Shown here in pieces: positions 10,060 through 42,132 of a DNA stretch of 42,272 nt. The translations under genes and the position numbers were made by a program. The stretch lies in sequence record SRR22947725_833; one strand, 5' to 3'. How positions within the stretch are numbered: the first letter of the stretch is position 1; every line of letters begins with the position of its first letter. The notes below the pieces were generated by a model. It searched no databases. It saw nothing but the letters and a program-made list of their open reading frames with translations, and had not been told where the DNA came from.

Positions 10060-10096
10060 ATTGTCCTCATTTATTTTTTACCTATTAATCAAATAG

Positions 10097-11136: not shown

Positions 11137-11150
11137 AGCAAAACCGTTGA

Positions 11151-11813
11151 TTAATTAATTATAGCAACTGCACGGACTGGAGAACCATCAGCATCTTGAA
11201 TTTTAATCGGGAACGCACTCAACGTAAACTCTGTATCAGGAACCTCGGAAAGGTTGCATAAATACTCCAAAATAGCTACATCGTTTTCAAGAAATATAGT
11301 ATGATTAGGTGAGTCTTTTTCACTATTTCTGCCGTTTGAAGGATTATCTGGCATTGGACTATCAAAACCTACAAGTACAACTCCACATGAAACTAGGTAT
11401 TTACACGCTTCCTCACTTAAAAAAGGATGGTCTGAATAATAACCGAGACTAGGGAGCCGCCTCTCCCAATCAAATCGAAATAATATTCTCTTTGGATAAT
11501 TACATGGTAGTTTTTTTTGTAACATTTCAAGAGTAATCTCTGTTTTGTCTGGTAGCTCAGTAAAGTCTAGCACAAGCGCATTTCCATAATAGATATTAAT
11601 ATCTGTATACTCAATCGTTTTCCCATTTTTTAAAAAGTGTCTAGGCGCATCAACATGGGTTCCTGTATGTGTACCTAAAGTTATCTTCCGAGTCTCTCTG
11701 CCTTCGACCTCGAACCTGCCAAGTTGAGTTATCGAAACAAAAGGATGCCAAGGCACAGGAAATGTCATCATCCCTTCACATATTTTCATACTTAGATCAA
11801 TTATTTTTGTCAT
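11151..11813 (-). CDS. Cyclase family (kynurenine formamidase-like) metal-dependent hydrolase
   Basis: IDLS, HTGTHVDAPRHF, GFD, LEYLCNL and DGSPVRAVA. Alternative TTG start at 11819. Confidence 0.9.
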   Translation of the reverse strand: MTKIIDLSMKICEGMMTFPVPWHPFVSITQLGRFEVEGRETRKITLGTHTGTHVDAPRHFLKNGKTIEYTDINIYYGNALVLDFTELPDKTEITLEMLQKKLPCNYPKRILFRFDWERRLPSLGYYSDHPFLSEEACKYLVSCGVVLVGFDSPMPDNPSNGRNSEKDSPNHTIFLENDVAILEYLCNLSEVPDTEFTLSAFPIKIQDADGSPVRAVAIIN

Positions 11814-12606: not shown

Positions 12607-12607
12607 T

Positions 12608-14059: not shown

Positions 14060-14080
14060 TGGAAACCAACCAAAGAATCA

Positions 14081-15142
14081 TTATAACTCATTTTGTTCTT
14101 CTCCAAAATATTTCGCTAATGAGAATCGGTGATTAAATCCTTCTTCCTTTGTAATGGCTCGAATTTCTTTAGCTTTACGTTCGACCAAATCTGCTGGAGC
14201 AAAGTCAATATTTTCAGAACAAACTTCTACAATTAATCTCCTTGGGTCAATATCATATTTGAGTGAAAATTCTTGAATTACCTTCATATAACTGGAATGA
14301 AAGCCTGAATACCCACAAATTACATCAATGGTATCCGATCCGATCTGACTTAAAAGGGGTCTAATAAAAGTCTCAGAAATATCTAATAAGCGCATCAAAT
14401 CAATATCTAACAACTTTCCTTCGCGTTGCATAATACCAACAAATTGTTCTATTTGAGTGTTGCCAGCACTTCGTCCCATTCCTTGTAGTGAACAATCAAT
14501 AATTGCTGCACCACAGTCAGCAGCAACCATTGAGTTGGCGACGGCTAATCCCAAATTATTATGCGCGTGGAAACCAAAAGATAAATCCGACAATCTTTCA
14601 CAGTATGTTCTTGTCATTTTGGGTGTTAAGTTTCCAGCAGAGTCCACGATATATACATGGTCTGCACCAAAGCCAATCGCCTGTCGAGCAGCTTTCTCAA
14701 AAAGAATAGGAGATCTGGCATATGATTTCATAAAGTTTACACACGTAACTATTCCAGCGGTCTTTGCCTTCCGTATAAATGGTTCGGCCTTCATAACATC
14801 ATCAATACTAACTCCAATACGAATAAACCCCATATTATAATCAATACACATGTCCAAGTCACCTACAGAACTAATACCAGGTATCGCAAACATTCCCCAT
14901 AAAGATCTTGATAACGAACTAGAGGCGGCCTTCATGTACTCTTCGTCACTTTCTCGAGCAAGCCCATAACCTGCTTCAGACGCATTTAAACCTACACCAT
15001 GACCAATCTCAATTAAATTTATGTTAGCCTGCTGAAGTTCGGAACAAATTTCAGACGTCTGTTTCGAATTAAAGTCAAAATTGTTTACGTAGGATCCATC
15101 TCGAAGAGTAGTATCTAGTATCTTCATTTTTTCATTCGTCAT
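14081..15142 (-). CDS. 4-hydroxy-2-oxovalerate aldolase-like (DmpG/HMGL-like DRE-TIM) enzyme
   Basis: LDTTLRDGSY, EIGHGVGL, VDSAG, GFHAHNNLGLAVANS, GMGRSAGN and a C-terminal GYSGFHSSY communication-domain-like segment. Start set to the ATG at 15142. Confidence 0.88.
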   Translation of the reverse strand: MTNEKMKILDTTLRDGSYVNNFDFNSKQTSEICSELQQANINLIEIGHGVGLNASEAGYGLARESDEEYMKAASSSLSRSLWGMFAIPGISSVGDLDMCIDYNMGFIRIGVSIDDVMKAEPFIRKAKTAGIVTCVNFMKSYARSPILFEKAARQAIGFGADHVYIVDSAGNLTPKMTRTYCERLSDLSFGFHAHNNLGLAVANSMVAADCGAAIIDCSLQGMGRSAGNTQIEQFVGIMQREGKLLDIDLMRLLDISETFIRPLLSQIGSDTIDVICGYSGFHSSYMKVIQEFSLKYDIDPRRLIVEVCSENIDFAPADLVERKAKEIRAITKEEGFNHRFSLAKYFGEEQNEL

Positions 15143-27399: not shown

Positions 27400-29157
27400 T
27401 TAACTTTTTTTCTTCGTAAGCTCTTCAATTTTTCCATCCTTCATTCGGTAAATTCGATCACAATATCTCAACGTAGAGGCGCGATGTGCAATATAAATTA
27501 CAGTAATATGGTTTCTTAATTTATTTATTTCTTTAATTATTTCTGATTCTGTTTCTTCGTCGAGAGAGCTTGTAGCTTCATCTAATACCAGAATTTTACG
27601 TTTAAAATAAAGAGCTCTAGCTAAAACCATCCTTTGTCTCTGCCCACCCGAAAGTAGGATGCCTTGCTCGCCCATCGATGAGTCTAACCCTTCAGGTAAT
27701 AAGTCAATAACAGAAATTAAATTAGATCTAGTTATGGCTTCAGATAAGCGCGTGTCGTTAATAAGACTAGGATCTTCGCCAAGAGCTATGTTTTCTTTTA
27801 TAGATCCATCAATAAAGAAAAGTTCTTGCGGAATATAAGCTACCTCGTCCCATAATACAGTGGGATCTTCATAAAGTGAAACACCATCCAGTTTAATATC
27901 TCCTTCATCAGGTGAGAGCAAACCTAATAAAACGTTAAGTAATGTCGTCTTTCCTGAACCAGAAGAACCAATAATCCCTATAGAATCTCCATTTTTAATT
28001 TTCAAATCAATACTCTTTAAGATTTTTCTATCTGATTTAGGATATGTGTAGCTTATACCTTGAAGATTTATTTCTTTAAGACTGTCTTTCCGACTTTTAT
28101 TTATGCGTGTAGAGTTAGTTTTATCGTTAATAGTGGTCTTAATTAAATCAAGCTCTTTTAAGTCAATCGTAAGTTTGTTTACGGTATCTTTGTAGAAATG
28201 TATTCTGTTTAATACTGTGGATAAATTTCTTGCCATTGGTAGCATTCTTACTGCAACAACCCCATATAAACCAAGCGTAAAGACTAATGTATCTGACTGC
28301 CCCTCTAAGAAAAATGTGGAAATAGCTAAAAAAACAACAAATATAATTATTGTAGTTTCAAGAATATATTTTGGTAATAACCCGTAGAAAACTAAGTAAA
28401 CCTGTGTGTTGGCAAAGCCTTTTGCGCTATCAACCAAACGGGTGTGAAAGTATTTTTCTTGACCCAATAGACGTATCTCTCTTAGACCCTTAAGTGCCTC
28501 AGTTGTATATTGAATGATCTCTCCTGAGGTACTATTTGCTTCACGCCCGTAGGTTAGTAGTTTATTTCTGACAAAAAGGTTATAGCACGAAATACTAACT
28601 CCCAAGAGTATGGCCATTAAGAAAAATGCAAATGGGTTTACCCAGATTAATAAAGTTACAATAAATAATGATAAAATTAACTCTCCTAAACTCTGGAGAA
28701 TGAGCATGATCAGGGTTGAGAAATTTGGTACTAAAACTTGAATTGAATTTATATAGTCAGAGCTATTTCTGTACATATAAAGGTTGTAAGGAAGACCTTG
28801 GTAAGAAGCGAGTAGAATATCACGCAATCTGATTTGCTGAAATTGGCTAAATTCGATCACCTTTCTTGATAGCCAAGCAGACACTATAGATTTACTAACG
28901 TACAATATTATTACACAAAAACCAACCATAATCATCTTAGATTGTATATCCAAAGCTAGTAACTTTTCTGGGAAAATGGATAAAACAAAAACAGGTATGG
29001 GGAAGTCACCACCAGTCACAATTCCCAGAAAAGGGCCGACCATTCCCAAACCAATCAAGTCAAACATTGAAATGAAAACAAACATCCAAAAAATCCTCGG
29101 CAATTTTTTACGAGAATCACCTAAAAGGAAAATAAAATTTTTATAATATGATAGCAA
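27400..29157 (-). CDS. ABC transporter, fused permease/ATPase (PglK/MsbA-like glycan flippase)
   Basis: N-terminal TM domain, Walker A GSSGSGKTT, LSGGQRQR, VLDEATSSLD and IAHR. Confidence 0.92.
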   Translation of the reverse strand: MLSYYKNFIFLLGDSRKKLPRIFWMFVFISMFDLIGLGMVGPFLGIVTGGDFPIPVFVLSIFPEKLLALDIQSKMIMVGFCVIILYVSKSIVSAWLSRKVIEFSQFQQIRLRDILLASYQGLPYNLYMYRNSSDYINSIQVLVPNFSTLIMLILQSLGELILSLFIVTLLIWVNPFAFFLMAILLGVSISCYNLFVRNKLLTYGREANSTSGEIIQYTTEALKGLREIRLLGQEKYFHTRLVDSAKGFANTQVYLVFYGLLPKYILETTIIIFVVFLAISTFFLEGQSDTLVFTLGLYGVVAVRMLPMARNLSTVLNRIHFYKDTVNKLTIDLKELDLIKTTINDKTNSTRINKSRKDSLKEINLQGISYTYPKSDRKILKSIDLKIKNGDSIGIIGSSGSGKTTLLNVLLGLLSPDEGDIKLDGVSLYEDPTVLWDEVAYIPQELFFIDGSIKENIALGEDPSLINDTRLSEAITRSNLISVIDLLPEGLDSSMGEQGILLSGGQRQRMVLARALYFKRKILVLDEATSSLDEETESEIIKEINKLRNHITVIYIAHRASTLRYCDRIYRMKDGKIEELTKKKS

Positions 29158-29273
29158 AAGTTATTTCCTCACAACATTATGGTAACTACCGACAAACTCT
29201 TATCTCAATTATTTTAAGCCTCATTAAAGTTTTGAATTAAAAATAATAAATTACCCAAAAATAATTTTTAATC

Positions 29274-29861
29274 TCACTCCCAAAAGCTAGGGTTTTTTGT
29301 ACATATAGCATCAAACTCTAACTTACCTTCAATAATAGATTGCCGAATATTTTCACCTTCAATTAACAAATCTTGACCCTGCAACTCGGGTGAAACCAAA
29401 CATAGTTTAAATCCCATATTTTTTAAATTTTTATTTTGCTCCGAAGTTAATGTAAACCTGTCGAAACTATCTATCCAAACCCAATCTACTTTACCAGTGA
29501 GAGACATTACCGTCTCTATAGATTCGAAATCAGAGTATCGAACTGCAGTTCTTTTCTCATTTGTACGCATCAATTTCATCAAAAAAGGGAATGACTGATC
29601 TAAAAAGAAGAAATTAGTAATATTTCTTTTCTTAAACTCTTTAAGGACTCTACCTTCCAGACCTTCTTCTTTTACATTTGCAATTATAGTCTTGTGATCA
29701 AAATATTTTAACCAATTACGTAAGCTTTCACCACATTGAAAAGGATCATGGTGAAGAATTAATTCATCTCCATATGTCCTTATATCAACTTCAACACCAT
29801 ATTTTTTACCAACAAGCTTTAGCTGTTGAGTAGTATTTACTTTATGTAAAATTATTTGCAT
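29274..29861 (-). CDS. PI-PLC/glycerophosphodiester phosphodiesterase-like protein
   Basis: ILHKVN, GVEVDIR, LHHDP, NVKEEG, WVWIDSF, LVSPELQG and DAICT. Confidence 0.78.
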   Translation of the reverse strand: MQIILHKVNTTQQLKLVGKKYGVEVDIRTYGDELILHHDPFQCGESLRNWLKYFDHKTIIANVKEEGLEGRVLKEFKKRNITNFFFLDQSFPFLMKLMRTNEKRTAVRYSDFESIETVMSLTGKVDWVWIDSFDRFTLTSEQNKNLKNMGFKLCLVSPELQGQDLLIEGENIRQSIIEGKLEFDAICTKNPSFWE

Positions 29862-30192
29862 ACGAATCCCAAAATTAACTAAGTATAATCTTTCTGTGTT
29901 CGAAAGAAAATAAGGCCTTCACAAATATTACTCGATATCTTTTTTTTTGGTAAACTGAATAGTTTATGGTGGTATAAAGCGGTGAAAAGTACTGAATAAG
30001 AAATTAAACTTACATTTTTTATATAGCTTTTAAAAACCTATTTAAGTTCTTCACGAATCACATATTTCAACAAAAAATAATTTATCAATAATAAACGGGT
30101 CAGGTCACTTCAATTATTTGAAAAAAAGATCGCTTGTGTTAATTCTAATATTGATTTTGACAACAATAGTTTTGTCAATGATAGAAATTCTT

Positions 30193-30330
30193 CTACTTTA
30201 CTTGTACCGTTTTCAAATAGAAATTGGTGCTTAACACTTCGTCGTACTTCATTGATTTAGGATAAGATACAGAAAAGGAATTTCTTAAATGTGCACCTGT
30301 TACTGTCACCATTCCCCTTTGCTTCAACAT
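30193..30330 (-). pseudogene. Degenerate IS3-family transposase (OrfB integrase core) fragment
   Basis: Manual translation MLKQRGMVTVTGAHLRNSFSVSYPKSMKYDEV keeps the exact spacing of the recalled IS3 motif GAWRDNVFVERLWKSVKYEEV, but the catalytic Glu is lost. Confidence 0.5.
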
Positions 30331-30496
30331 GTTGTCATCTTTTAAAAAAAAGACAACAAGAACTTATAAAATAGCCCAGTCATTTTTTGCAACTTGATTG
30401 AGTAGAAAAAGGTCTAAAGGTTGGAGGAAGATCTTCATTTTAGTTACCTCAAAATGAACTCTGGTAAATATTAAAGATAAATGAAATAAATAAATA

Positions 30497-31105
30497 TTGT
30501 CGTATAGTTTAGAAAAATTTTTAAGAATGAAAAACATAACTAATCCAAATGCAATAGATGACATTAAACTAATTATATTTGATGTTGATGGTGTGCTGAC
30601 AGATGGAAAAAAAACATACGACACCAAAGGACAAAAAATATCTAAATCTTTTGGTGATCTGGATTTCACAGCAATAAAAATATTACAATCTTTTGGTTTT
30701 AAAGTTGTTTGGCTCTCTGGAGACGAAGTTGTTAATGAACCGTTAGCCGTCATCAAGAGTATACCTTTTTATTGTACTCGGCTTTCTGATGGTAGCAATC
30801 AAGATAAAATTTTACTGCTTCCTAGTATATTAAATTTTTTTTCTCTTTCAAAAGAGCAAGTTTGGTTTGTTGGAGATGATATATTCGACTTAAATATAAT
30901 TAGAAATGTTGGCTTTTCCTCCTGCCCAGCAAATGCCTCTTTCTTGGTCAAGCGAGAAGTAGATTTAGTTCACAATAGTAAATCCGGAGAAAGCGTGGCC
31001 TCAGAAATATTAGAACTACTATTTGACCACCATCAATTCCGTGATGTTAATATACCTAGCATATTAGAAAATCAAAACAAAGAGGGTCAAAGGAACAAAA
31101 AATAG
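30497..31105 (+). CDS. kdsC: KdsC-like HAD phosphatase (ulosonate-phosphate phosphatase)
   Basis: IFDVDGVLTDG, KSFGDLD, LSG, DK, VGDDIFD and CPANA. Alternative ATG at 30527. Confidence 0.8.
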   Translation: MSYSLEKFLRMKNITNPNAIDDIKLIIFDVDGVLTDGKKTYDTKGQKISKSFGDLDFTAIKILQSFGFKVVWLSGDEVVNEPLAVIKSIPFYCTRLSDGSNQDKILLLPSILNFFSLSKEQVWFVGDDIFDLNIIRNVGFSSCPANASFLVKREVDLVHNSKSGESVASEILELLFDHHQFRDVNIPSILENQNKEGQRNKK

Positions 31106-31208
31106 TATCTTGAACTCAATACTATATCAAAAAACCGTATTCATACTCTAACATACACCCAAGCACTACAAGGGTTTCAAATGTAGGCTGTTAGATACTT
31201 TAAGATAG

Positions 31209-31231
31209 AAAAACCTAAAATAGGTTTTTTT
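31209..31231 (+). terminator. Possible intrinsic (bidirectional) terminator between convergent genes
   Basis: aaaaaccta-aaa-taggttttt hairpin with a T run on one side and an A run on the other. The stem is weak and AT-rich. Confidence 0.35.
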
Positions 31232-31260
31232 GGAAAGACAATAATTTATATTTCTTAGCG

Positions 31261-31560
31261 ATAGTAGAAACACTGTTCGGCTTAAAACTGAGATGCGAGT
31301 ATTATTCTACTCACTGCCGATGAAACTATATTACCAACACTAAAGGGCCCAAGGTCTGAGGCGGACACCTCACCCTGGTTTTGAATACTCTGACCCGGCG
31401 TTTTAATTCTTAACATTGGAGGTCAAAAAAATACCTCAGTCTTAAGGAATTACCTAGATATCTGTGTTACAGAACCTTTAACAAGTAGGGTTATCTAAAG
31501 TTAGAATCATAGCACCAGAAACTAATGTGCCTATCCACAGAAGTCTTATTTGCATGGGGG
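31261..31560 (+). mobile_element. Highly degenerate IS3-family (IS407-group-like) transposase C-terminal relic
   Basis: Collinear, frameshifted peptide remnants G-KLR-E, FYSL, NTKGP and APETNVPI (31512 onward) resemble the recalled OrfB tail GKLRDE...IFYSL...HYNTKRPH...PAPETIVPM. The stretch is locally richer in GC. Confidence 0.4.
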
Positions 31561-31760
31561 TACTTTGATAACCAAGAAAGACCTTGAACCACAAAAATAC
31601 GCTGCCTATGATATTCTTTCCTTCCGAAACTCCCTTCTCAAAACCCTTTTATTTTTCAAAAGAAAAAATATTTTAGGAGAATAGAGCTCAATACGGCTTT
31701 TATTATTATAGCTAATAGTCTAAAATATGTGGAACTCTACCTAAATATTACCACTATTTA

Positions 31761-33320
31761 CTATATTGGAGTAAAATAATCTTCCCAGTATTCAAATATC
31801 TGTAATTCAAATGGATCTCCAAAACTGATCCACTGATCAACTTCAAATGTTACGAATTTTAATCCCTTAGATAACAGATAATTAATTGAATTACCCACAT
31901 AATGCTCTCCATTTACTTTTATATCATTTTGGATTGTATAGTGTGCGGTCTCTAAAAAATTTTCTGCTCGCCTAAACCAAAATGTACCCAAAACAAGTGG
32001 GTCATTATTTGGAGTTTGACTAATCACCTTTTTTTCTACTATTTCACTAACCGTACCATCTTCGTTCGTAATGCAGTAGGCAAATGCCTCAGGATTCTTC
32101 ACCGGGATATTCCCTGTTTTTGTTACCCAGATAGCTCCATCAATGGACAAATCTAATAATATCGAGTCCCATTTTTTGTCATTATAAACTACTCGATAAT
32201 CACAAGATGTTATAAACATTTCTGCAGAAATGCACATTCTGTTTTCTGCCAATAAACAAGTAGCAGCTTGACCTGAAGTTTCACTTTTAACTTCAATTAA
32301 TTCAAAGGACCCATCGATATTATGGAAAAGCTTTGCTAGGTCATATTTACCACCATCATTTGCTCTAACAAGTATGAGGTATTGGTCCTGTTTTGGAATC
32401 GAGTCAATCGCGTGTAAAATCATAGGCTTGTCTTGTACAGTAATAAGCGGCTTACTAACTCTATAACCATAACTAGAAAACCTAGTACCCTTCCCCGCCA
32501 TGGGAATTAATGCCAATTTAAGATTTTTTTCCTGCGATCTAGATTTTGGTAAATAGGTTTTTTTAAAGTATTTGTCCCAAAAATTATACTGTTCATAATC
32601 ACTTGGAGTACCCAAACAAATAAATTTAGAAACCTCTGTTACTAATACATTAAGTTTATCCCTAACCATAAAATTGTAGAGAAGACTTACGTACGCTTCT
32701 TTTACATCACTAGGCATATTTTTGAGTAGCTCGTCAGCATAATGGTCAAATGTTTTTTTATCCCTAAAATAATAAATTCCAGCAGACGCGGGTTCATTTT
32801 GCCTTTCATTAGTGAACGATTTCTTTTCTTTCAATTCCAGCATATCGTTATGGGCATTAGTTTTCATATAAGCAAAGTATGTTGTTCCAAAAGATGCTGG
32901 GTGGAAACCTTTAAACGATGGGATTGCACCATCATAACTCACAACCTTTTCTAAAAAATACCTAAAATTCCATTCAACAATAAAATCACAATAACAGATT
33001 ATTATTGGATCGTCTGGGTTTAAGTCAGTTACCTTCCTTACAGAGAGTACGGGCCCAATTTCATGAGGTTCTATTACCGTTATTGTAGATTTTAATACCA
33101 AACTTTTAAGGAAGTTTATAAGGTTTGAATCTTCATTTACTTGGCTCAAGTTAACAACAAAATGGAATTCACATAAGTTTCCATCAAACATATCTAAAAC
33201 ATGTTCTATCATTGTTTTTTCGCCAACAGGTAATAAAGCCTTGGGTCCTGTATAACCTAATTGATGGAATCTACGCGAGTGACCACACAAAGGTATTATT
33301 ACATTTATTAAATTCACCAT
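31761..33320 (-). CDS. Tandem two-domain sugar-phosphate nucleotidyltransferase
   Basis: Domain 1: IIPLCGHSRRF..GY..PKALL, CYCD, LGTPSDY. Domain 2 from about 32520: LIPMAGKGTRF..GY..SKPLI, GQAATC, TSCD, EIVEK, VNGEHYV, FGDPFEL. Confidence 0.88.
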   Translation of the reverse strand: MVNLINVIIPLCGHSRRFHQLGYTGPKALLPVGEKTMIEHVLDMFDGNLCEFHFVVNLSQVNEDSNLINFLKSLVLKSTITVIEPHEIGPVLSVRKVTDLNPDDPIIICYCDFIVEWNFRYFLEKVVSYDGAIPSFKGFHPASFGTTYFAYMKTNAHNDMLELKEKKSFTNERQNEPASAGIYYFRDKKTFDHYADELLKNMPSDVKEAYVSLLYNFMVRDKLNVLVTEVSKFICLGTPSDYEQYNFWDKYFKKTYLPKSRSQEKNLKLALIPMAGKGTRFSSYGYRVSKPLITVQDKPMILHAIDSIPKQDQYLILVRANDGGKYDLAKLFHNIDGSFELIEVKSETSGQAATCLLAENRMCISAEMFITSCDYRVVYNDKKWDSILLDLSIDGAIWVTKTGNIPVKNPEAFAYCITNEDGTVSEIVEKKVISQTPNNDPLVLGTFWFRRAENFLETAHYTIQNDIKVNGEHYVGNSINYLLSKGLKFVTFEVDQWISFGDPFELQIFEYWEDYFTPI

Positions 33321-33333
33321 GGCTTTCTTATTT

Positions 33334-34254
33334 CTACTGCAAAACTATTTCACGCCAATAATCGACTGACTCTTTGAGTACTTCAACAACTGTTGAGTCT
33401 GATGGTTCACGCTCTCTAAAACTTAACTCCAATATTAATTCTATTGGCTGATCTGTGTTTTCTTTTATCGTAGAAATAACCTTTTCAGGGATTATGCGTC
33501 CCAATTTATTGTTCTCTTTTGTAAACGGCCAATGACCTGATTTATTCTCTGAGCTTTGTTTTAAATGAATTAGCGGTGATTCATGACAAAACTCTTTCAA
33601 CCATACGTAAGGATCAGTATCATCTTTATTTTCAGACATTATATTTCCATGATCAACATCCAAGCACAGTTTGAAAGGTAATGGCGCATTATCATTGACA
33701 TCTTTCTGTAATCTCTGCGTTTCTAATAATGTTTCACCTTGCTCTCTACTGATAGACATTGGCTCCCAAGTCAAATATTGAAGCCCTTTTTGTTTGGCAT
33801 AATCAGCTATTTCGTGCCAACCTTCAATATTTTGGCGTCGTCGTTCGTTTCGACGTGAAAGACTGGTTTCATCAAATTTTGTAAATATTCCGAAATGACT
33901 GCCCATAGAAGTACAACCAAGGTCAACAGATAAATCAACAAATTTTTTAAACCATAAAATCCAATACTTCCTTATTTCAGGGTTAGGATGAGCCAGATGA
34001 TTCACCCGAGTGAAGGCTCCAGTAAAACTACTATTTATTTTTACATTATATTTTTTACAGTTTTTCAATATAGCTTTTGTTTCACTAATAATAATATCTG
34101 CTGGTAAACTAACATTTAGCATGTCCGCAGTTATTTGCGCATATCTTAGGCCTAAACTATCTCCAACTATACGAATCCACTCTTCGTGCTCAGAATAACG
34201 GTTCACTGCAAACCCAGTATTAATACCCAATGAAAATTGATGTGGTTTCTTCAT
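33334..34254 (-). CDS. eryC: EryC-like D-erythrulose-1-phosphate 3-epimerase family TIM-barrel protein
   Basis: VNR, RVNHLAHP, WEPMSISREQGET, DVDHG, DPYVW, SPLIHLKQS, GHWPFT and LELSFREREP are collinear with Brucella/rhizobial EryC as recalled. Confidence 0.75.
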   Translation of the reverse strand: MKKPHQFSLGINTGFAVNRYSEHEEWIRIVGDSLGLRYAQITADMLNVSLPADIIISETKAILKNCKKYNVKINSSFTGAFTRVNHLAHPNPEIRKYWILWFKKFVDLSVDLGCTSMGSHFGIFTKFDETSLSRRNERRRQNIEGWHEIADYAKQKGLQYLTWEPMSISREQGETLLETQRLQKDVNDNAPLPFKLCLDVDHGNIMSENKDDTDPYVWLKEFCHESPLIHLKQSSENKSGHWPFTKENNKLGRIIPEKVISTIKENTDQPIELILELSFREREPSDSTVVEVLKESVDYWREIVLQ

Positions 34255-34256
34255 CT

Positions 34257-34970
34257 CTAATATTCCCGGTTACTCAAACCAATATCTATACTTTTTCTCA
34301 TATTTTTAATAGAATTTTCTAAATCTCCATCCGGAAGAAATAGCCCAGAAGAGCCCCCTACCAAAATATCTGCACCAGCTGCAACCATACCAGGAATATG
34401 CTCTAAACTGACATTTCCATCAACAGATATCTTTGTGTCAACTTTCATTTCATTTATTCGTTTACGTAAATCAGAAATTTTTCTTATACATTGCTTAACA
34501 ATTTTTTGTCCCTTAAATCCAGGGTTAACAGTCATTATTATTACCAAATCTACCTCTTCTAAAATATAATCTAGGGCTTCTAGAGCTGTCCCTGGGTTTA
34601 TGGCTACACCAACTTTTGCACCCATACGTCTTATTTTTACTAAATCTCTATGCAGGTTACGGCAACACTCCTGATGAATGGTAAAAGTATCGTTAGGAGA
34701 TACTGAAAAGTTGTCAAAAATTGACGAGGGCTCTTCCACCATAAGATGATAGTCAGATGGAATTTTAGTAACCGCTCTAAAAGTATCTATAATACTACTA
34801 CCCATAGTGAAATCTGGAGCAAAGCGCCCATCCACTACATCCCAATGCAGGTAATCAATATCCATCTTTTCCAGTAAATCTAGCTGGACCTTTGCTTGCA
34901 ACCAGTCGATACACATCATAGAGGCAGAGATCGCAACAGTATTTTGCTTTATTTTATCCTCTTTTTTCAT
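34257..34970 (-). CDS. rpe: Ribulose-phosphate 3-epimerase family protein (Rpe/AlsE-like)
   Basis: SASMMC, HWDVVDGRFAP, DYHLMV, TIHQE, AINPGT, MTVNPGFKGQ, VDGNV and VGGSSGLF (AlsE-like). Confidence 0.85.
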   Translation of the reverse strand: MKKEDKIKQNTVAISASMMCIDWLQAKVQLDLLEKMDIDYLHWDVVDGRFAPDFTMGSSIIDTFRAVTKIPSDYHLMVEEPSSIFDNFSVSPNDTFTIHQECCRNLHRDLVKIRRMGAKVGVAINPGTALEALDYILEEVDLVIIMTVNPGFKGQKIVKQCIRKISDLRKRINEMKVDTKISVDGNVSLEHIPGMVAAGADILVGGSSGLFLPDGDLENSIKNMRKSIDIGLSNREY

Positions 34971-36016
34971 GGTTTTATTACCACTTTACATGCTTTACCA
35001 CTTTCAGCTAATTTAAATGCTTTATTAATATCTTTTAATGGATACTCGTGTGTTATTAAGTCGTTTAATTCGATACTCTTATCTTCAATTAGTTTAAGAG
35101 CCTGTGCGTGCTGGGCTGGTGTTGAGCCATGTGACCCAGTAACATAAAACTGCCTATAATGAATATGATTTGATAGTAATGATAAAGGTTTTTCGTATTT
35201 ACCAATACCACCGAATAGGTTTATTACACCGTTCTTTGCTACGATTTTCACTGCATCTTTGTGAGCCTCTAACGAAGGACAAGCAGTGAAAACAATATCT
35301 GCTTCTCCCACGCCTAAAGAGCCTGAAAATTGTTCTAAACTTGTTTTTTCATCTATTCGATCTAAAACAAGGTCTGGTGCAAACTTTTTGGCTATCTGAC
35401 GACGAAACTTTGAAGGTTCAATAATCGTACTATGCTCAATTCCATAGAGTGCTTTTCCTAAAGCTAATAACATTAAGCCTATGGGCCCAGCACCAAATAT
35501 AACGAGTTTTTTTGGCTTCTTTATCGGAGCTAATGCCTGTTCATAACCGTTTATACAGCAAGCCAGAGGTTCTGCCAAAGCTGCTAGGTTCCATTCTAAT
35601 TCGGTACCAAATTTTTGTAATGGCCCATACTTTACAATCAGTGGATCTAAAATCATGTATTGACTAAAACCACCATCAAATTGATAGCCAATCGCTAAAT
35701 TCATTTCACAACTATTAGGAAGCCCCTCATTACAATAACTACATTGTCCACAAGGGATATCAGCACCTGTTGAAACTCTATCATTTACAGAATAATTTGT
35801 TACCCCTTTTCCAACCTCCACTACTCGTCCTGCAATCTCATGACCTAAAACTCGGGGTGTCTTTATTCTCTTTTGACCCTCCCTCATGGTCCGTAAATCT
35901 GATCCACAAATTGCGCACGCCATAACTTCAATTACTATAGTGCCAGGAAGAGCCTTAGGAGATTTCTTTTCTACTAACTCCAGTTGGTTTACCCCATTAA
36001 AAACTGCTGCAATCAT
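34967..36016 (-). CDS. Zn-dependent medium-chain polyol dehydrogenase (L-iditol 2-dehydrogenase-like)
   Basis: ICGSD, GHEIAG, CGQCSYC...C, EPLACC and GAGPIG. Confidence 0.92.
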   Translation of the reverse strand: MIAAVFNGVNQLELVEKKSPKALPGTIVIEVMACAICGSDLRTMREGQKRIKTPRVLGHEIAGRVVEVGKGVTNYSVNDRVSTGADIPCGQCSYCNEGLPNSCEMNLAIGYQFDGGFSQYMILDPLIVKYGPLQKFGTELEWNLAALAEPLACCINGYEQALAPIKKPKKLVIFGAGPIGLMLLALGKALYGIEHSTIIEPSKFRRQIAKKFAPDLVLDRIDEKTSLEQFSGSLGVGEADIVFTACPSLEAHKDAVKIVAKNGVINLFGGIGKYEKPLSLLSNHIHYRQFYVTGSHGSTPAQHAQALKLIEDKSIELNDLITHEYPLKDINKAFKLAESGKACKVVIKP

Positions 36017-37794
36017 TATTGTATTTCCATTTCTGATAACTGCTCCACCATTTCTTTGTCATAAATAACACTAAGTCTATCTAAATAATTACCTTTCAAT
36101 ATCCTCTTTTGAGAACTTTTATCAAACAAAAGCCAGTGACCTAATCCAAAAATTGGTTCATTACTGAAAACCTTATTTTCGATTCGATCCGAAAAAGTTT
36201 TATCCGGTGACATAAAACCTATAAACTCATCTTTCGACCATCCCACCAGTTTTCCATAAAGAGCAAATCGTTTTAATCTTTCCTCAAAATCTATTGAAGA
36301 TGTAAAAGCATTTGTCCAAAGAGAAGGCAACGTAGTTTTAGATATAATGATGAGATTACTGAAAGCTGTATGCCCATAAAAATATTTTCCGATTGAACTA
36401 TATGAAGCATCCCTGGTAATCTCATTAGTAGCTTTCTCATATTGAGGTTTGATCTCAGTAGTGAACTTTTCAAAAGATACTTTTGATCCTTGAGCAACAA
36501 ATATCCCTAAAAATAATATTAAAATTGGAAGATAAATAATGCTTGCCTTCCCAATTAAGAAATGGAGTATCGTTCTTGCTAACACCACTCCCTTTTTTGA
36601 TTCTATACCTTGAGAATATTTTACTGGTACGCGTTGTAAAAAATAGACTGGTGGAATGTAGTAACTTATATGTAAGAAAAATAACCCCAGTCTGGATACT
36701 AACATCTCAGTAGGAACACCAAAGCCGAATACCTGCCAACTGATTATTAAAAATAATTCAACCAACATTGTTACCCAAATTGGTGTAAAGCGATACCATA
36801 ACTCCACTTTATCTATTCGAAACGCTATGTAACAAATCACAGTCATGAAAACTGGTATTATGAAGTACGCAGTAAGAGTAAACCAATCGAAACTTAAATT
36901 AGAATTAGGTTGCGTCTGTATGCTAGTAAATGTTGATGATAATAAAGAAAGCATTACTGGAGCGGATAACAAATAAAGTACTAGTAAATTCTGAATAATA
37001 AATTTAGCCGAAGTATGACGCTGACTATGCCCCAACCTTCGCCAATAACATATCAAAAGAACCATAGTCCAAAAGGGAACACCAAAGAGTAAATTCAAAA
37101 TATGAACCTGCGCCTGAAGTCCCCACAGCACTGATAAAATTAAATGCCCTGAAGAAGTCGAATTTTCTCGTCCAAGTGATTTGTAAAAAAGGTACAAAAA
37201 GCACAGTAATGACAAAGTAGGGAATGGAAAACTAGTTATACTAAGACTTAATTCATTGGCTACTTCAATTCGATTTTGAGTAAATATTGATAAAAATGTA
37301 TTTACTAAAAATTCTCTAAAAGGATAATTATCAATAGCAATAATACCAAGAAACCCCATAAAAATGGACCATCTTAGCGGAAGGTAGGTATTAAAGATTC
37401 TTACCATTAAATAATAACAGAATGTCGGTATAACTGTTAAAACTATTAAATAGCTTGCTTTTAACCCTAGAACCCCAATCACTAAGGATGAAACCCATAA
37501 TGACAAATATGGGATTAGAACGGATAAAGATAAAGGTTTAAAAATATCCGAAGAGTTTAAAAAAATATCTCCACTATTAATTAAGAAGATTAATTTTTGC
37601 CAAGTAACAAAATTACTTATATCAGCAATACTTGTCTTATGGAGACCAAGAAATTCGGCATCAATTGACCAAATAACACGTGCATCCCAAGCTGAAATAA
37701 GAAGAATTACAAATACACATGAAATGAAAATAGCTAAGTTTTTAATTGTAAATTTTTTATTACCTATTTTTAATTCGTAGTTTTCAAAATCCAT
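36016..37794 (-). CDS. Polytopic membrane protein, candidate GT-C transferase, polymerase or ligase
   Basis: 592 aa with many hydrophobic segments and a soluble C-terminal domain. Directly downstream of the GtrB-like GT2. Confidence 0.5.
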   Translation of the reverse strand: MDFENYELKIGNKKFTIKNLAIFISCVFVILLISAWDARVIWSIDAEFLGLHKTSIADISNFVTWQKLIFLINSGDIFLNSSDIFKPLSLSVLIPYLSLWVSSLVIGVLGLKASYLIVLTVIPTFCYYLMVRIFNTYLPLRWSIFMGFLGIIAIDNYPFREFLVNTFLSIFTQNRIEVANELSLSITSFPFPTLSLLCFLYLFYKSLGRENSTSSGHLILSVLWGLQAQVHILNLLFGVPFWTMVLLICYWRRLGHSQRHTSAKFIIQNLLVLYLLSAPVMLSLLSSTFTSIQTQPNSNLSFDWFTLTAYFIIPVFMTVICYIAFRIDKVELWYRFTPIWVTMLVELFLIISWQVFGFGVPTEMLVSRLGLFFLHISYYIPPVYFLQRVPVKYSQGIESKKGVVLARTILHFLIGKASIIYLPILILFLGIFVAQGSKVSFEKFTTEIKPQYEKATNEITRDASYSSIGKYFYGHTAFSNLIIISKTTLPSLWTNAFTSSIDFEERLKRFALYGKLVGWSKDEFIGFMSPDKTFSDRIENKVFSNEPIFGLGHWLLFDKSSQKRILKGNYLDRLSVIYDKEMVEQLSEMEIQ

Positions 37795-37857
37795 TTGTCA
37801 ACAATCTCTAATTTTAAACCATTATAATTTATCACTCTCTATCTGCTAGAAGCGGAT

Positions 37858-38604
37858 TCAAATCAATGTTTTTCTAATCTTCCGCAACTCTAATGAAAAG
37901 AGGATAGTACGGTAAGACAGCTTTAGCTTTGATAAAAAGTGATCATTATGACCAATGCCATAATTTCGTATACCAAAATATACAGGAAAACGTACCACTG
38001 ACAGCTTTAGTTTTTTTGCCATATAAAATGCGTAAAGGTCCAAAGAAAAATCTTTGGGTGGGTTTCCCCATTTTGTTAAAATATCTCTATGGAATATGTT
38101 AGGTTGTGAATTAATATCTGACATCCAAACACCTAACAAACCTACCTCAATTACTGTCATAGCGTATGAAAAAATAACATCTTTGAATTTACGGCCGATT
38201 CTTTTTGCCTTAACATAGCTTCGGCAAGGAGACTTTTGTTCTCGTAACAAATTAATACATTCTAAAAATACAATTGGATCAGTCTGTAAATCAGCATGGC
38301 ACCAACCCACAAAACAACCTCTAGCAGCATTAAGCCCACTTAATATTCCATGACCATAGCCTTGGTTTTTAGTAAGTGTGACACATTTCAATCTATCTGT
38401 GTTACTAGTAATTAAAATCTTATCGAGAGCACTATCAGATCCGTCAGTAGACCCATTGTTTACTAATATAACCTCTATGTCATCCCTTTTCTCTAACAGG
38501 GACATACAACTTTTCCAAAGTCTTTCTAGGTTCTCTATTTCATTATAACATGGTATGATTAAGGAGTATTCAACTTTACTTTCTAGCCGGACTGTTTCAG
38601 TCAT
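37858..38604 (-). CDS. GT2 polyprenyl-phosphate glycosyltransferase (DPM synthase/GtrB-like)
   Basis: LIIPCYNE, VNNGSTDGS, NQGYGHGILSG, HADLQTDP, DINSQP, DFSLD and FPVYFGIR. Confidence 0.88.
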   Translation of the reverse strand: MTETVRLESKVEYSLIIPCYNEIENLERLWKSCMSLLEKRDDIEVILVNNGSTDGSDSALDKILITSNTDRLKCVTLTKNQGYGHGILSGLNAARGCFVGWCHADLQTDPIVFLECINLLREQKSPCRSYVKAKRIGRKFKDVIFSYAMTVIEVGLLGVWMSDINSQPNIFHRDILTKWGNPPKDFSLDLYAFYMAKKLKLSVVRFPVYFGIRNYGIGHNDHFLSKLKLSYRTILFSLELRKIRKTLI

Positions 38605-39680
38605 CTTAACTCTACTAACGTCTTTATATTTTTGAACTCAGAGATTCTGTTCTTATGATCATTCATTTTCAAGAGTGTTTCACCAACTTCAGAAATTTTG
38701 ATTCTATTAGAAATTAGTTTTGATGGGCTGAAACCTTTAGACATAAGATCTAATGTGGCAGTCCAATCACATGATGAATTAATTTTATAATCAGAGTTCC
38801 AACTACCTAAAATTCGTAGCTCTTTACGTAAAATACTACTCACAAGAGATTTAGGAATACTGAGGTCAGCAGAGATATTTCCTATCCAAACAATGGTACC
38901 ATTCGCTTTACACAATTGAATTGAGTTAACAAATGTCTCCGGAGCACCAACAAACTCTAGGACACAATCAAAACTTGATTTCATCTTATCACAGAAAAGT
39001 TCCATTTCTTCACTAGACGGAATTGTTTCCGCTTCAGCACCTAAACTTCTTGCTTCCTCAGTTTTATAATTATTCCTATCGAGCACGGTAATCTTACAAT
39101 TTTGATAATTTTTTTTGAGTAAATTAATACATAATAAGCCTAGGAATCCTGCACCTAATATACAAATATTTAATGATACATCCCTACTTAACTCAAGTTT
39201 TTTTATTGCGTGCAGTACTACCGCCGAGGGCTCTAGTAACGCGGCATCCTCCAGACTGACATTGTCTGGTATCTTCAAGAGGTTCCACGTATTGACATTC
39301 AAGTAAGATGACATTCCTCCATTTGTTCTAGAACCATAATAGCTATAAGATTTGCAAAGGGCAAATTTCTTACGATCACAGCTTTCACACGCAAAACAAG
39401 GAAGCAATGGGAAAACAGCAACCCTATCTCCTATTTTGAAGTTTAACCGACCCTTATCTTCTACTCTGGAAATTATCCCACTCATCTCATGGCCAATAAC
39501 CAACGGATAGGTATAAGCACCAAACCTGCAGGTTCGCTCAATATCAGATGCACAAATTCCAACTTTGTGCATAGCTATTTCTACCTGATCTCCAATTGGG
39601 ACTGTACGGTTTTGCTGAAGTACTTCGAAACATGCATTTTTTTTTAGACTTAAATATTTCCCTTTGACTTCTTTGTTCAT
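38601..39680 (-). CDS. Zn-dependent galactitol-1-phosphate 5-dehydrogenase-like protein
   Basis: GICASD, GHEMSG, VFPLLPCFACESC...C, YGSRTNGG, EPSAV, GAGFLG and ILRKELRILGSWNS. ATG at 39680 has a GGAG RBS. Confidence 0.9.
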   Translation of the reverse strand: MNKEVKGKYLSLKKNACFEVLQQNRTVPIGDQVEIAMHKVGICASDIERTCRFGAYTYPLVIGHEMSGIISRVEDKGRLNFKIGDRVAVFPLLPCFACESCDRKKFALCKSYSYYGSRTNGGMSSYLNVNTWNLLKIPDNVSLEDAALLEPSAVVLHAIKKLELSRDVSLNICILGAGFLGLLCINLLKKNYQNCKITVLDRNNYKTEEARSLGAEAETIPSSEEMELFCDKMKSSFDCVLEFVGAPETFVNSIQLCKANGTIVWIGNISADLSIPKSLVSSILRKELRILGSWNSDYKINSSCDWTATLDLMSKGFSPSKLISNRIKISEVGETLLKMNDHKNRISEFKNIKTLVELR

Positions 39681-39896
39681 GAGTTTCTCCGTTAGGACTA
39701 TAATAAATACATGTCTTTTCTCCCTAAAGCATACCTCATCTGTATACAAAAAAAAAACTAATATAAACTAAACTTTACTTAATTAAAAATAAGAAGCTAT
39801 ATAAACATTTTTAAACAACTCTTTTAAATGGTTAATAGAAAATTATATGTGACCTTTTTTGATTAACTTTGGTAAATAATTAGAAAGATCTTCGGT

Positions 39897-40307
39897 GTGC
39901 GTATCAAAAAAATTAATTCCTCACTATTAAAGTTATTTAATCAATTAGCTAAATTTACAATAGTTGGCTTTTTTGGGATATTTATAAATTATTTAATATT
40001 TATAATTTTTTTAATTGTCCTTGATGTTAATTACTTGATTTCTGGGTTTTTAGGGTATTTAGTACCAGCTATACCAGTATTTTTGATAAATCGCTATTGG
40101 ACATTTAAATCAAATATTTCAATATCTAAAGGTGTCGCAGTATATTTTTTAATAGATGGAATGAAAGTATGTTTACATGCCGTAGTACAACTCTTATCAA
40201 CGGAATTATTTTTAGTGCCAGAGTTATATTCTCAGGGAATAGGTATTTGTTTTGCAACAGTATTAGGTTTTATTCTTGTAAGAATGTTAATGACTAGTAA
40301 ATTATAG
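39897..40307 (+). CDS. GtrA-family small membrane flippase
   Basis: 136 aa with about 4 TM segments, QLAKFTIVG and FLINRYWTFKS. Confidence 0.85.
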   Translation: MRIKKINSSLLKLFNQLAKFTIVGFFGIFINYLIFIIFLIVLDVNYLISGFLGYLVPAIPVFLINRYWTFKSNISISKGVAVYFLIDGMKVCLHAVVQLLSTELFLVPELYSQGIGICFATVLGFILVRMLMTSKL

Positions 40308-40322: not shown

Positions 40323-40667
40323 ATGAAAAAAATTTTTAGATATACAGAAAAAAAACTCCTTATCTCATGTTACAGTGATGAATTAGAACAAATCTGTAAA
40401 AATAAACTCATAGCTGTAAAAGTAATTGAAAACTTTTATACTTCTTATAGTAACTTTAATGTATACCTAAAAATATTAATAGTTTTTCATTTAGTTTTAC
40501 TATTTTTTATTAATTTTGTAATTTTTACTGGGTTACTTTTTCTAAAATATAATAATTTTAATATTATATTTAAATTAGTACAAAAAATTCCTTTTATAAA
40601 AAATATTCATAACTTTATAATAGCAAATTTACTATTGCATTTTGAAAGGAGTGATAATGTACATTGA
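40323..40667 (+). CDS. Hypothetical protein coupled to the GMC oxidoreductase
   Basis: 114 aa ORF in extremely AT-rich DNA, with one hydrophobic stretch. It overlaps the start of the GMC gene. Confidence 0.6.
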   Translation: MKKIFRYTEKKLLISCYSDELEQICKNKLIAVKVIENFYTSYSNFNVYLKILIVFHLVLLFFINFVIFTGLLFLKYNNFNIIFKLVQKIPFIKNIHNFIIANLLLHFERSDNVH

Positions 40668-42132
40668 CTTAGACACTTTTGAAAAAGATATCATTACCGA
40701 AGAAAATGTTATTATAGGTTCAGGAGCGGGAGGTGCCACCACCTCATTTGAACTAGCCAAAAAAGGTAAAAAATCTATAATTCTAGAAGGAGGCCCTTTT
40801 CCGTCCTCGACACCTGAAAGAGTGGGTAGTTCAATTTCAAAACTTTATAAGAATAATGGTGCAACCCCTATGTTATCCAGTAATGGAGGGCCTGTCATAG
40901 GATATGGGCAAGGTAGCTGTGTAGGGGGTTCCACTTTTATTAATGCCGGTTATTTTTCTTCTACTCCAGAATGGGTTTTTGAAGAATGGTGCAAAAAAAA
41001 TAGAACAGAAATAGACTTTAAAACCTATAAAGCATATAGTGATGAGATTAGGAGTGAAATAAGTATATCTAAAGAAAAATTAACCTCAAGAGATAAGGAT
41101 TCGAAGAAACTTCTTGACGGTGCTAATAAATTAAATTGGAAAATCGAAAGATGTGAAAGGTTTCTAAAAAACTGTAATAGAAACAACATGTGTCCGGTTG
41201 GATGTCCAAGTGAGTCCAAACAAAGCATGAATGTGACATACTTAAAAGAATTGATAGCAAACGGGATTGATGTGTTTTTCAACTCTGAAGTTATAAAAAT
41301 AGATGTTAGAAATAGTAAGGCATCATCTCTTCTAATGATTAATAATAATAAAAAATTAATTCGAGTAAATTTTAAGAATTTATTTATTTGTGGAGGCCCA
41401 ATAAGTACACCACATTTAGTATTAAAAAATCGATTAGCAGATTTTAAAAAAAATCATAATGATTTCGAATTTCATATAAATTTTAGAACCGTTGCTAAAT
41501 TCAAAAATGAAATGATAGAGTCTAATTTATCTACAGTTAGTATTTTCTTTATGCGAGAGTTTGAAAAAGAAGGAGCTTTGCTTTCAGCAGCAAACTCAGA
41601 CATCCCTTACTTATTAGCCACACTAAGCCACTTCAACAACACTCTCAAAAAAGATGTGTATAACAACTTTAATAACTTTGCGCTCTACATATATCAGATC
41701 AAAGCTTCATCAAAAGGCCAAGTTAAAAGCATTTTTGGGAATCAGTACATATCATATGCATTTGAAAAAAATGACGTCAAACAAATTCAAAAAGCAATAC
41801 TAAGAATTTCAGAACTTTTTTTTATGGCTGATGCTGAGTATTTATTATTTCCAATTCAGGGTTCAAAAAAAATCAAATCTATGATAGACGCCAAAGAGTT
41901 AGCAGATAGCTTCTCTGTAAAAGATCTCCATCTGATATCTGTACATGGGATGAGCAGCTTAAGGTCTGGATCAGAAAATGAACAAAAAACAGATTATTTT
42001 GGTAAGTTAAAGAACTTTGAGAATATCTTTATTAATGATGCTAGCATAGTGCCAGGAAACACTGGTGAAAGCCCTCAATCGACCGTTATGAGTTTTGTAA
42101 AACACAATGTGAAAAACAATGTACTACTATAA
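40657..42132 (+). CDS. GMC-family FAD oxidoreductase (long-chain alcohol oxidase-like)
   Basis: IIGSGAGG, LEGG, GSCVGGSTFINAG, CNRNNMCPVGCP, SVHGMSS and DASIVP..GESPQ. ATG at 40657 follows AAGGAG (the ORF track start is 40642). Confidence 0.9.
   Translation: MYIDLDTFEKDIITEENVIIGSGAGGATTSFELAKKGKKSIILEGGPFPSSTPERVGSSISKLYKNNGATPMLSSNGGPVIGYGQGSCVGGSTFINAGYFSSTPEWVFEEWCKKNRTEIDFKTYKAYSDEIRSEISISKEKLTSRDKDSKKLLDGANKLNWKIERCERFLKNCNRNNMCPVGCPSESKQSMNVTYLKELIANGIDVFFNSEVIKIDVRNSKASSLLMINNNKKLIRVNFKNLFICGGPISTPHLVLKNRLADFKKNHNDFEFHINFRTVAKFKNEMIESNLSTVSIFFMREFEKEGALLSAANSDIPYLLATLSHFNNTLKKDVYNNFNNFALYIYQIKASSKGQVKSIFGNQYISYAFEKNDVKQIQKAILRISELFFMADAEYLLFPIQGSKKIKSMIDAKELADSFSVKDLHLISVHGMSSLRSGSENEQKTDYFGKLKNFENIFINDASIVPGNTGESPQSTVMSFVKHNVKNNVLL

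Follow-up and report, generated by a model that had tools for sequence, protein, structure and literature searches.

A candidate nucleotide-sugar cassette and Gtr-type side-chain glycosylation module in a polysaccharide locus, with relatives in bacteria, plasmids and viruses

What does a set of sugar-phosphate dehydrogenases and epimerases make when it is built into a polysaccharide locus beside the genes for lipid-carrier glycosylation? The question is raised by a 42,272-bp stretch of DNA from the sequence record SRR22947725_833 (the whole stretch is called the window here), with a GC content of about 30-42%, nearly all of which is a polysaccharide locus on a single strand. Nine genes within positions 29274-40307, delimited by the list of open reading frames (ORFs), Pfam, NCBIfam and fold comparison, constitute the module under study. 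These encode two Zn-dependent medium-chain dehydrogenases (MDR1 and MDR2), an epimerase of the Rpe family, an EryC-like epimerase, a tandem nucleotidyltransferase (NTase), a small GDPD-like protein (o195), a short GT2 glycosyltransferase, a polytopic membrane protein of 592 residues and a GtrA protein. On balance, we favour the view that the module joins a cassette dedicated to nucleotide-sugar synthesis to a Gtr-type lipid-carrier system of side-chain glycosylation, which it would supply, and our best reading is that it contains an undescribed nucleotide-sugar pathway.

Central to this view is that the gene arrangement is far beyond chance, as seen from its recurrence in related loci. A scan of metagenome contigs with an alignment of the NTase recovered 80 loci, including one that duplicates part of the window; alignments served as queries, and scans with single sequences yielded few relatives. 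All eight genes other than GtrA are present in 25 of the 79 related loci and in most of the loci long enough to hold them. In the 28 related loci of at least 11 kb, the window copy left out, the NTase is found in 28, EryC-like and Rpe in 27 each, MDR2 and the GDPD-like gene in 26 each, the 592-residue protein, MDR1 and GT2 in 25 each, and GtrA in 10. The conservation of the neighbourhood, which the original prediction had put forward as a check, is thus borne out for the eight genes other than GtrA, each being present in 25-28 of these 28 loci. The order of the MDR2-Rpe-EryC-NTase block is constant wherever it is seen, while MDR1, GT2 and the GDPD-like gene travel as a unit. Clustering of the ORFs from 80 loci (79 from metagenomes and the locus L002) revealed no further family in more than eight of them. 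The same genes are present in rotated order in a metagenome-assembled genome (MAG) of the Bacteriovoracaceae (G001, which holds L002), and no GtrA was found in its 2.5-Mb assembly, which is possibly incomplete.

Comparison of the related loci further reveals that the module splits into a donor cassette, comprising the feeder enzymes, the tandem NTase and the GDPD-like protein, and a carrier part, comprising GT2, GtrA and the 592-residue protein. The viral loci illustrate the division. A scan of viral contigs with a profile of the GDPD-like family recovered 18 loci, several of them labelled as giant-virus MAGs, and a tandem NTase lies beside the GDPD-like gene in 17 of these, the genes of an alternative feeder (considered below) in 13 and a short GT2 in only two. 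Two phage contigs that look identical (L129 and L130; L129, positions 1106-8447) carry a thymidylate-synthase-family gene, EryC-like, two MDRs, Rpe, the tandem NTase and the GDPD-like gene, followed by a TET-associated DNA glycosyltransferase (TAGT; PF20691, 44.5 bits, above the cut-off) and a DNA ligase; neither a GT2 nor a GT-C gene was found on the L129 contig. The six-gene cassette of the window is here paired with a DNA glycosyltransferase, a combination that may provide phage DNA with an unknown sugar hypermodification. A 158-kb T4-like contig (L083) combines the alternative feeder with a weaker TAGT match, and in two giant-virus MAG contigs from IMG/VR (L118 and L124, GC 0.24) the cassette with that feeder adjoins GT61 enzymes. 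Since the cassette serves ordinary glycosyltransferases in viruses, what it makes should be a genuine glycosyl donor. The original prediction coupled donor synthesis to a lipid carrier; in viruses the cassette also works with ordinary non-lipid glycosyltransferases. Among isolated phages, S-SM2 and Bellamy, both cyanophages, are the only ones with a full-length tandem NTase (30% identity). The gene of Synechococcus phage S-SM2 (L085; positions 154113-155681 of the record) lies inside a large sugar island with a Zn-dehydrogenase, a transketolase-like protein, kinases, a class II aldolase, SIS isomerases and glycosyltransferases. The pyrophosphorylase of Shewanella phage Thanatos, as it is presented in the available part of PMC12838424, is a different, single-domain enzyme.

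How is the sugar expected to reach the glycan in the window? The closest solved relatives of the GT2 are GtrB sll0501 (E 1e-9), the Pyrococcus DPMS (E 1.2e-7, residues 11-216, a match that spans the whole catalytic domain) and ArnC (E 1e-6). The GT2 of the window has no C-terminal transmembrane (TM) helix, and its 33 aligned homologues are all 230-249 residues long. At the usual D-x-D position it reads H-A-D-L-Q (residues 103-107), with His103 invariant in the 33 homologues; GtrB, DPMS and ArnC have Asp at the corresponding position. The 592-residue protein has about ten hydrophobic segments followed by a soluble C-terminus; no Pfam match was found for it, and a profile search against PDB sequences gave nothing significant. 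Its AlphaFold (AF2) model, with a pLDDT of 81.5, aligns in VIA-align with Pmt4 (Z 17.1, root-mean-square deviation 4.8, 358 aligned residues), Pmt1-Pmt2 (Z 16.7) and AftB (Z 14.9), and rows 1-14 of the matches are all GT-C enzymes. Foldseek places STT3, AftA, PglB and ArnT at the top with a weak E of 1e-3. The model argues that the membrane protein has the GT-C fold. The three-component glycosylation set that had been proposed for this locus is accordingly present as regards a modelled GT-C fold, a GT2 of the polyprenyl-phosphate clade and a GtrA; where the proposal needs amending is that GtrA is an optional member of the module, present in 10 of the 25 complete loci.

The enzymes that would feed the cassette were identified from their families. 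The EryC-like protein matches PDB 4k3z over residues 7-301 (E 1.1e-69), an entry deposited under the title 'D-erythrulose 4-phosphate dehydrogenase', and EryC itself is described in the available part of PMC11508834 as a tetrulose-4-phosphate racemase. We read the substrate of EryC as structurally equivalent to a ketose-1-phosphate, and that of the EryC-like protein is probably a C5 ketose-1-phosphate. Rpe falls into the NCBIfam subfamily NF004076, with 177 bits against a cut-off of 165. MDR1 resembles the E. coli galactitol-1-phosphate 5-dehydrogenase (PDB 4a2c, E 5e-44), and its match to the NCBIfam model of that enzyme (E 1.4e-56) lies under the curated cut-off. For MDR2, the top PDB match is L-threonine 3-dehydrogenase (E 7e-42), with polyol dehydrogenases further down the list.

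A different feeder is attached to the same core in other bacteria. The NTase profile, at E<=1e-40, matched 42 of 301 Bdellovibrionota genomes, and 16 of these 42 loci were compared. Three of the 16 are orthologous modules, and the NTases of the remaining 13 are just 28-35% identical; these distant loci carry the GDPD-like gene in 13 of 13 and a GT2 in 12 of 13, and Rpe, EryC and MDR in none. Four of the 13 were annotated, and each has a HAD protein, a class II aldolase-family protein and a large polytopic protein with a C-terminal phosphoribulokinase (PRK)/uridine-kinase domain, which in L102 also has a GT87-like N-terminus. The top NCBIfam match of the HAD protein is ribulose-1,5-bisphosphate (RuBP) 5-phosphatase (E 5.6e-56) and that of the kinase is phosphoribulokinase NF005655 (190 bits), both under the curated cut-offs. 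A PRK-like kinase together with a RuBP 5-phosphatase-like HAD points to ribulose-1-phosphate. In haloarchaea, according to the available part of PMC9700705, a RuBP phosphatase forms ribulose-1-phosphate, which is then used by a class II aldolase.

Plasmids of E. coli (IncR type) and Azospirillum brasilense carry this second feeder too, in a variant that includes GtrA. The E. coli plasmid (L112; NZ_CP145712.1, positions 6022-14984) carries GtrA, GT2, a PI-PLC/GDPD-family protein, HAD, a class II aldolase, a membrane-anchored 'uridine kinase' and a 586-residue polytopic protein. A DNA-level search found the E. coli variant in 2 of 5,426 complete genomes, plasmid-borne both times, and the Azospirillum variant adjoins ABC-transporter and gmd genes. 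Compared with the window, this variant is 49-52% identical in the GDPD-like protein, 45-47% in GT2 and 32-33% in the NTase.

At the heart of the cassette are the tandem NTase and the GDPD-like protein, the latter being the most faithful partner of the former across bacteria and viruses. The NTase belongs to the NTP_transferase family (its match to IspD reaches just E 1.3e-3) and has more than 120 full-length homologues at 44-64% identity. Homology between its two halves extends over their full length (24% identity, E 5e-19), and both retain the invariant G-x-x-x-R-F...K, C/S-D-F/Y, E-K and G-T/D-P positions. Across 26 sequences, G13, S15, R17, F18, K27, D112, E165 and K166 are invariant in the first half and G276, R280, F281, K290, D374, E429 and K430 in the second; the N-terminal loop of G-x-G-x-R type, the Lys, the Asp and the E-K pair are presumably the catalytic motifs. 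In one Bdellovibrionota locus (G114:C35; L110, positions 9956-11505) the two halves are adjacent ORFs of 259 and 272 residues, so the fusion of the halves is not obligatory.

The GDPD-like protein o195 was recognised by its fold. It has no Pfam match at E<=0.01 and no NCBIfam match at E<=0.001, its profile found nothing significant among PDB sequences, and no Pfam domain appears in its homologues among the 120 matches listed. The AF2 model, built from an alignment of 31 homologues, has a pLDDT of 96, and Foldseek relates it to GDPD structures (E 1e-6, TM-scores 0.68-0.74), with 52 matches at E<=0.001, mostly GDPDs, and with sugar-phosphate isomerase TIM barrels such as PRAI at lower scores. 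H6, E24, D26 and H38 are invariant across the 31 homologues, and we take these to be the catalytic His pair and the acidic metal ligands. The family is large, with 1,410 relatives at E<=1e-10 among the representatives of 50%-identity clusters and at least 6,472 among 90%-identity clusters; the plasmid homologues are named generically by PGAP as GDPD/PI-PLC family. Sixteen of the best 150 representatives exceed 260 residues, and their additional domains are an NTase in three, a GT61 in three, and a GT2, an inositol monophosphatase, a GT87 plus PRK and a 2H phosphoesterase in one each, with six unrecognised. Fusions of NTase and GDPD-like domains are seen in P0286, P0287 and P0353, as well as in a 726-residue ORF of the giant-virus contig L124 (positions 5423-7603). 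In P0396 the partner is the 2H phosphoesterase domain, whose family hydrolyses cyclic phosphates.

How might these parts work together? Rpe, MDR1, MDR2 and the EryC-like enzyme could act on a pentulose-5-phosphate of the pentose phosphate pathway, which would be reduced to a pentitol phosphate, re-oxidised beside the phosphorylated carbon and epimerised at C3 to give a pentulose-1-phosphate. In the alternative feeder, a kinase and a 5-phosphatase would instead move the phosphate of the pentulose from C5 to C1. Both feeders point to a pentulose-1-phosphate, and the scheme of reduction followed by re-oxidation at the other end, which had been put forward for the window, gains indirect support from the analogous C5 to C1 shift that the alternative feeder would bring about. 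The tandem NTase and the GDPD-like phosphodiesterase would then turn the pentulose-1-phosphate into a nucleotide-activated glycosyl donor. The preferred route begins with NTase domain 1, which would form a nucleoside diphosphate (NDP)-(1)-pentulose; the GDPD-like enzyme would expel the nucleoside monophosphate to give a 1,2-cyclic phosphate and open it to the anomeric 2-phosphate, from which NTase domain 2 would make NDP-pentulofuranose. Such a double activation is suggested by three points taken together, namely that a ketose-1-phosphate is no direct donor, that both NTase domains appear active and that the barrel is of the phosphodiesterase type. GT2, aided by GtrA where present, would load the sugar onto polyprenyl phosphate, and the GT-C enzyme would transfer it outside the cytoplasm onto the polysaccharide of the neighbouring locus.

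It is here that the original prediction needs to be revised. The NDP-linked alditol phosphate or ketose-1-phosphate that it proposed is no glycosyl donor for a GtrB-type GT2, its scheme included no step making an anomeric phosphate, and the GDPD-like gene was given no role, despite its constancy beside the NTase in bacteria and viruses. It also missed that the cassette can be separated from the carrier part, although its central idea stands. The replacement is itself offered with restraint. That the NTase and the GDPD-like protein constitute a mutase-free two-step machine, converting ketopentose-1-phosphate into an anomeric NDP-ketopentofuranose, is a tentative proposal that we would sooner doubt than assert, and the cyclic-phosphate route and the ketopentose product, judged apart from the rest of the pathway, are at best possible.

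Several observations weigh against the pathway as drawn. The o195 of the window carries Lys where at least 90% of the homologues have Arg7. GDPD-like domains are also fused to glycosyltransferases (one GT2 and three GT61), which would suit a function during or following sugar transfer just as well. That GT2 and the GDPD-like protein are better conserved than the NTase between the two feeders is not predicted by the model. The top NCBIfam matches of MDR1, the PRK-like kinase and the HAD protein all lie under their curated cut-offs. The GT2 has no TM helices of its own with which to reach the lipid, and GtrA is absent from 15 of the 25 complete loci. From the phage side, o195 had no tblastn match in 50,697 isolated phage records, and a search of 8 kb to each side of the S-SM2 NTase revealed no GDPD-like gene. 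Moreover, we infer the whole of the chemistry from family membership, and the sugar and the identity of the acceptor are deductions as well.

Given these points, it is important to ask what else the cassette could make. The product could be a nucleotide-activated aldopentofuranose, with the GDPD-like barrel acting as a ketose-1-phosphate to aldose-1-phosphate isomerase and the NTase forming NDP-pentofuranose, to be used by GT2 and GT-C or by viral glycosyltransferases. Isomerase chemistry of this kind is performed by MtnA and ribose-1,5-bisphosphate isomerase, the feeder logic would be the same as in the pentulofuranose pathway, and isomerase barrels such as PRAI do appear, with weaker scores, in the Foldseek comparison of o195. 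The GT61 partners in the giant-virus contigs would also suit it, as GT61 includes pentosyl (xylosyl and arabinofuranosyl) transferases. In addition, a nucleotide-activated ribofuranose has not been shown, according to the available part of PMC7685785. Against this stand the conservation of two apparently active NTase domains, which is left unexplained, the invariant H, E-x-D and H of o195 and its best fold matches, which are those of a phosphodiesterase and not of an isomerase, and the far simpler cellular routes to ribose-1-phosphate, which together make the aldopentofuranose an unlikely product.

A CDP-pentitol type of pathway, in which an NDP-pentitol or a reduced NDP-ketose is formed and the GDPD-like protein serves as the phosphotransferase that adds the pentitol phosphate, appears more improbable still. 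In such a scheme, which resembles TarI/TarJ or AbpA/AbpB, the second NTase domain would activate an ordinary hexose for GT2, and both NTase domains as well as a phosphodiester-handling enzyme would find roles. MDR1 is GatD-like, and TarJ belongs to the same dehydrogenase class; the NTP_transferase family also includes enzymes for non-anomeric phosphates, such as LicC. However, no TagF, LicD or CDP-alcohol phosphotransferase family was found in the region or among the co-conserved genes, the viral cassette is paired with Leloir-type glycosyltransferases without GT2, two dehydrogenases and two epimerases exceed what a pentitol phosphate needs, and the second feeder has no reductase at all. The remaining possibility, that a catabolic operon for a polyol or a rare pentose merely lies beside unrelated glycosylation genes, has in its favour that GatD, Rpe/AlsE and EryC homologues function in catabolism. 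Yet no transporter, kinase or regulator family is among the Pfam and NCBIfam matches within 29274-40307, in agreement with the absence of an importer, kinase and regulator noted originally. Moreover, within polysaccharide loci the enzymes show tight co-conservation with the genes for the NTase, GT2, GT-C and the GDPD-like protein, and the same enzymes adjoin a DNA glycosyltransferase in a phage contig. The catabolic reading was rejected on these grounds as very improbable, and the co-conservation upholds the original view of an anabolic, glycan-linked module.

The positions of the nine genes are collected in the table. From MDR1 through the NTase, adjacent genes overlap or are separated by at most 63 bp, as expected for one operon. 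The MDR1 ORF reaches a TTG at 39749; a probable ATG start lies at 39680, and the homologues are 350-360 residues long. All the genes named by the original prediction are in place, except that it had counted the GDPD-like gene into the operon, from which it is not contiguous: about 1.9 kb separate it from the NTase, whereas in other loci the NTase and GDPD-like genes lie inside one gene cluster. The gap holds, on the opposite strand, a KdsC/KDN-9-P-phosphatase-like HAD gene (30497-31105, +), followed by about 650 bp without a long ORF (31106-31760) up to the NTase. Rfam and tRNA scans of 29100-31900 gave no Rfam match and no tRNA, and a scan for promoters and terminators found sites no more frequent than in shuffled sequence. 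The HAD gene of the window recurs in none of the 79 related loci and hence in none of the 28 of at least 11 kb; it could have been inserted, or it could belong with the upstream nonulosonic-acid genes.

Table. Genes of the module in the window, with their positions, strand and the basis of assignment
Feature	Position	Strand	Basis
GDPD/PI-PLC-like compact TIM barrel, 195 aa (o195)	29274..29861	-	fold match; donor cassette
Tandem nucleotidyltransferase (NTase), 519 aa, two homologous NTP_transferase domains	31761..33320	-	Pfam PF00483/PF12804, two stretches
EryC-like xylose-isomerase-fold epimerase, 306 aa	33334..34254	-	PF01261; PDB 4k3z
Rpe, ribulose-phosphate 3-epimerase family, 237 aa	34257..34970	-	PF00834, E 1.3e-56
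MDR2, Zn-dependent medium-chain dehydrogenase, 349 aa, threonine/polyol dehydrogenase-like	34967..36016	-	ADH_N, ADH_zinc_N
GT-C-fold polytopic glycosyltransferase candidate, 592 aa	36016..37794	-	AF2 model, VIA-align
Short GT2, 248 aa, polyprenyl-phosphate glycosyltransferase clade, without C-terminal TM helices	37858..38604	-	PF00535
MDR1, Zn-dependent medium-chain dehydrogenase, GatD-like	38601..39680	-	NCBIfam, PDB 4a2c
GtrA family four-helix membrane protein, 136 aa, divergent	39897..40307	+	PF04138, E 2.1e-15

Beyond GtrA, at 40323-42132 (+), lie a 114-residue protein with one TM segment (o114) and a GMC-family FAD oxidoreductase. The pair is also found beside the module in one of the 79 related loci (L074, at 43% and 51% identity), and both genes are absent from the 28 loci of at least 11 kb; their position may be due to chance, or the pair may provide an accessory oxidation step. 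Family scans of the DNA upstream of the module identified NeuB, two CMP-type cytidylyltransferases, a PseB-like dehydratase, a fused RmlD-DegT protein, acetyl- and methyltransferases and an ABC exporter. Two unusual fusion proteins are encoded in this upstream part, a 680-residue fusion of a CMP-type cytidylyltransferase with a class III aminotransferase (20769-22811, -) and a 696-residue fusion of an RmlD-like reductase with a DegT aminotransferase (24271-26361, -).

If the proposed pathway is true, it would supply the missing donor route for bacterial side chains of the xylulofuranose or ribulofuranose type, and it would extend to a previously unknown pentulosyl hypermodification of phage DNA and to the sugars of giant-virus glycans. 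Xylulofuranose is known from the glycans of Yersinia enterocolitica O:5,27 and Campylobacter jejuni HS:53. The donor cassette ranges over marine bacteria, Bdellovibrionota, E. coli and Azospirillum plasmids, phages and giant viruses, and solving its biochemistry once would assign a function to thousands of genes and might bring a new nucleotide sugar to light. Such modules alter serotype and phage receptors, and in phages they may shield the DNA from restriction. Xulf occurs in the O-antigens of E. coli O95 and O97, according to the available part of PMC7685785, and the module makes the donor question for Ribf and Xulf testable.

Finally, how does the module compare with the systems already described? 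A full-text literature search, with subscription journals and supplements outside it, found no description of this gene set, and individual parts have well-studied relatives. With the GDPD/PI-PLC superfamily, o195 shares the TIM-barrel fold and an invariant His, Glu-x-Asp and His near its N-terminus. Unlike the GDPDs, it has no Pfam match, is cytoplasmic and lies inside a nucleotide-sugar cassette, and its 195 residues compare with 226-297 for the full-length GDPD chains that it matches. The EryC-like protein has strong sequence similarity to Brucella EryC, but the context of the module is anabolic and glycan-linked, and none of the EryA, EryB, EryH and EryI families was found in the window region or among the co-conserved genes. 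The variant with the second feeder shares a PRK-like kinase, a RuBP 5-phosphatase-like HAD and a class II aldolase-family protein with the haloarchaeal RuBP pathway. That pathway is catabolic and ends in dihydroxyacetone phosphate and glycolaldehyde, whereas the enzymes of the second feeder adjoin an NTase and glycosyltransferases; their matches are under the curated cut-offs, and the window itself uses the redox feeder.

The likeness is closer for whole glycosylation systems. With the three-component Gtr systems of Shigella and Salmonella phages, which glucosylate the O-antigen, the module has in common the GT2 clade, GtrA and a GT-C transferase; it has a polysaccharide locus as its neighbour and, in E. 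coli, occurs on a plasmid as well. Unlike GtrB, its GT2 has no C-terminal TM helices, and GtrA is optional. Gtr systems draw on housekeeping UDP-glucose, whereas the module carries its own six-gene cassette for donor synthesis. The Gram-positive CsbB/GtcA/YfhO proteins are counterparts of the Gtr systems, as stated in the available part of PMC11127046. The same part of that paper describes a three-component pentofuranose system based on phosphoribosyl pyrophosphate (PRPP) with GT136 in Citrobacter youngae O1/O2 (Kelly et al. 2024; PMC11127046). With this system and the mycobacterial decaprenyl-phospho-arabinose pathway, the module would share the periplasmic addition by a GT-C enzyme of a pentose-derived side chain from a polyprenyl-phosphate donor, as well as auxiliary enzymes that diversify the sugar. 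PRPP-type systems, as described in that part, take ribose-5-phosphate from PRPP and employ a polyprenyl phosphoribose synthase and a MATE flippase; the module instead has a tandem NTase, a GDPD-like protein and a GT2, with no polyprenyl phosphoribose synthase in the region or among the co-conserved genes. Overall, the Gtr-type and the PRPP-based pentofuranose systems are the nearest kin of the module, and both obtain their donors differently.

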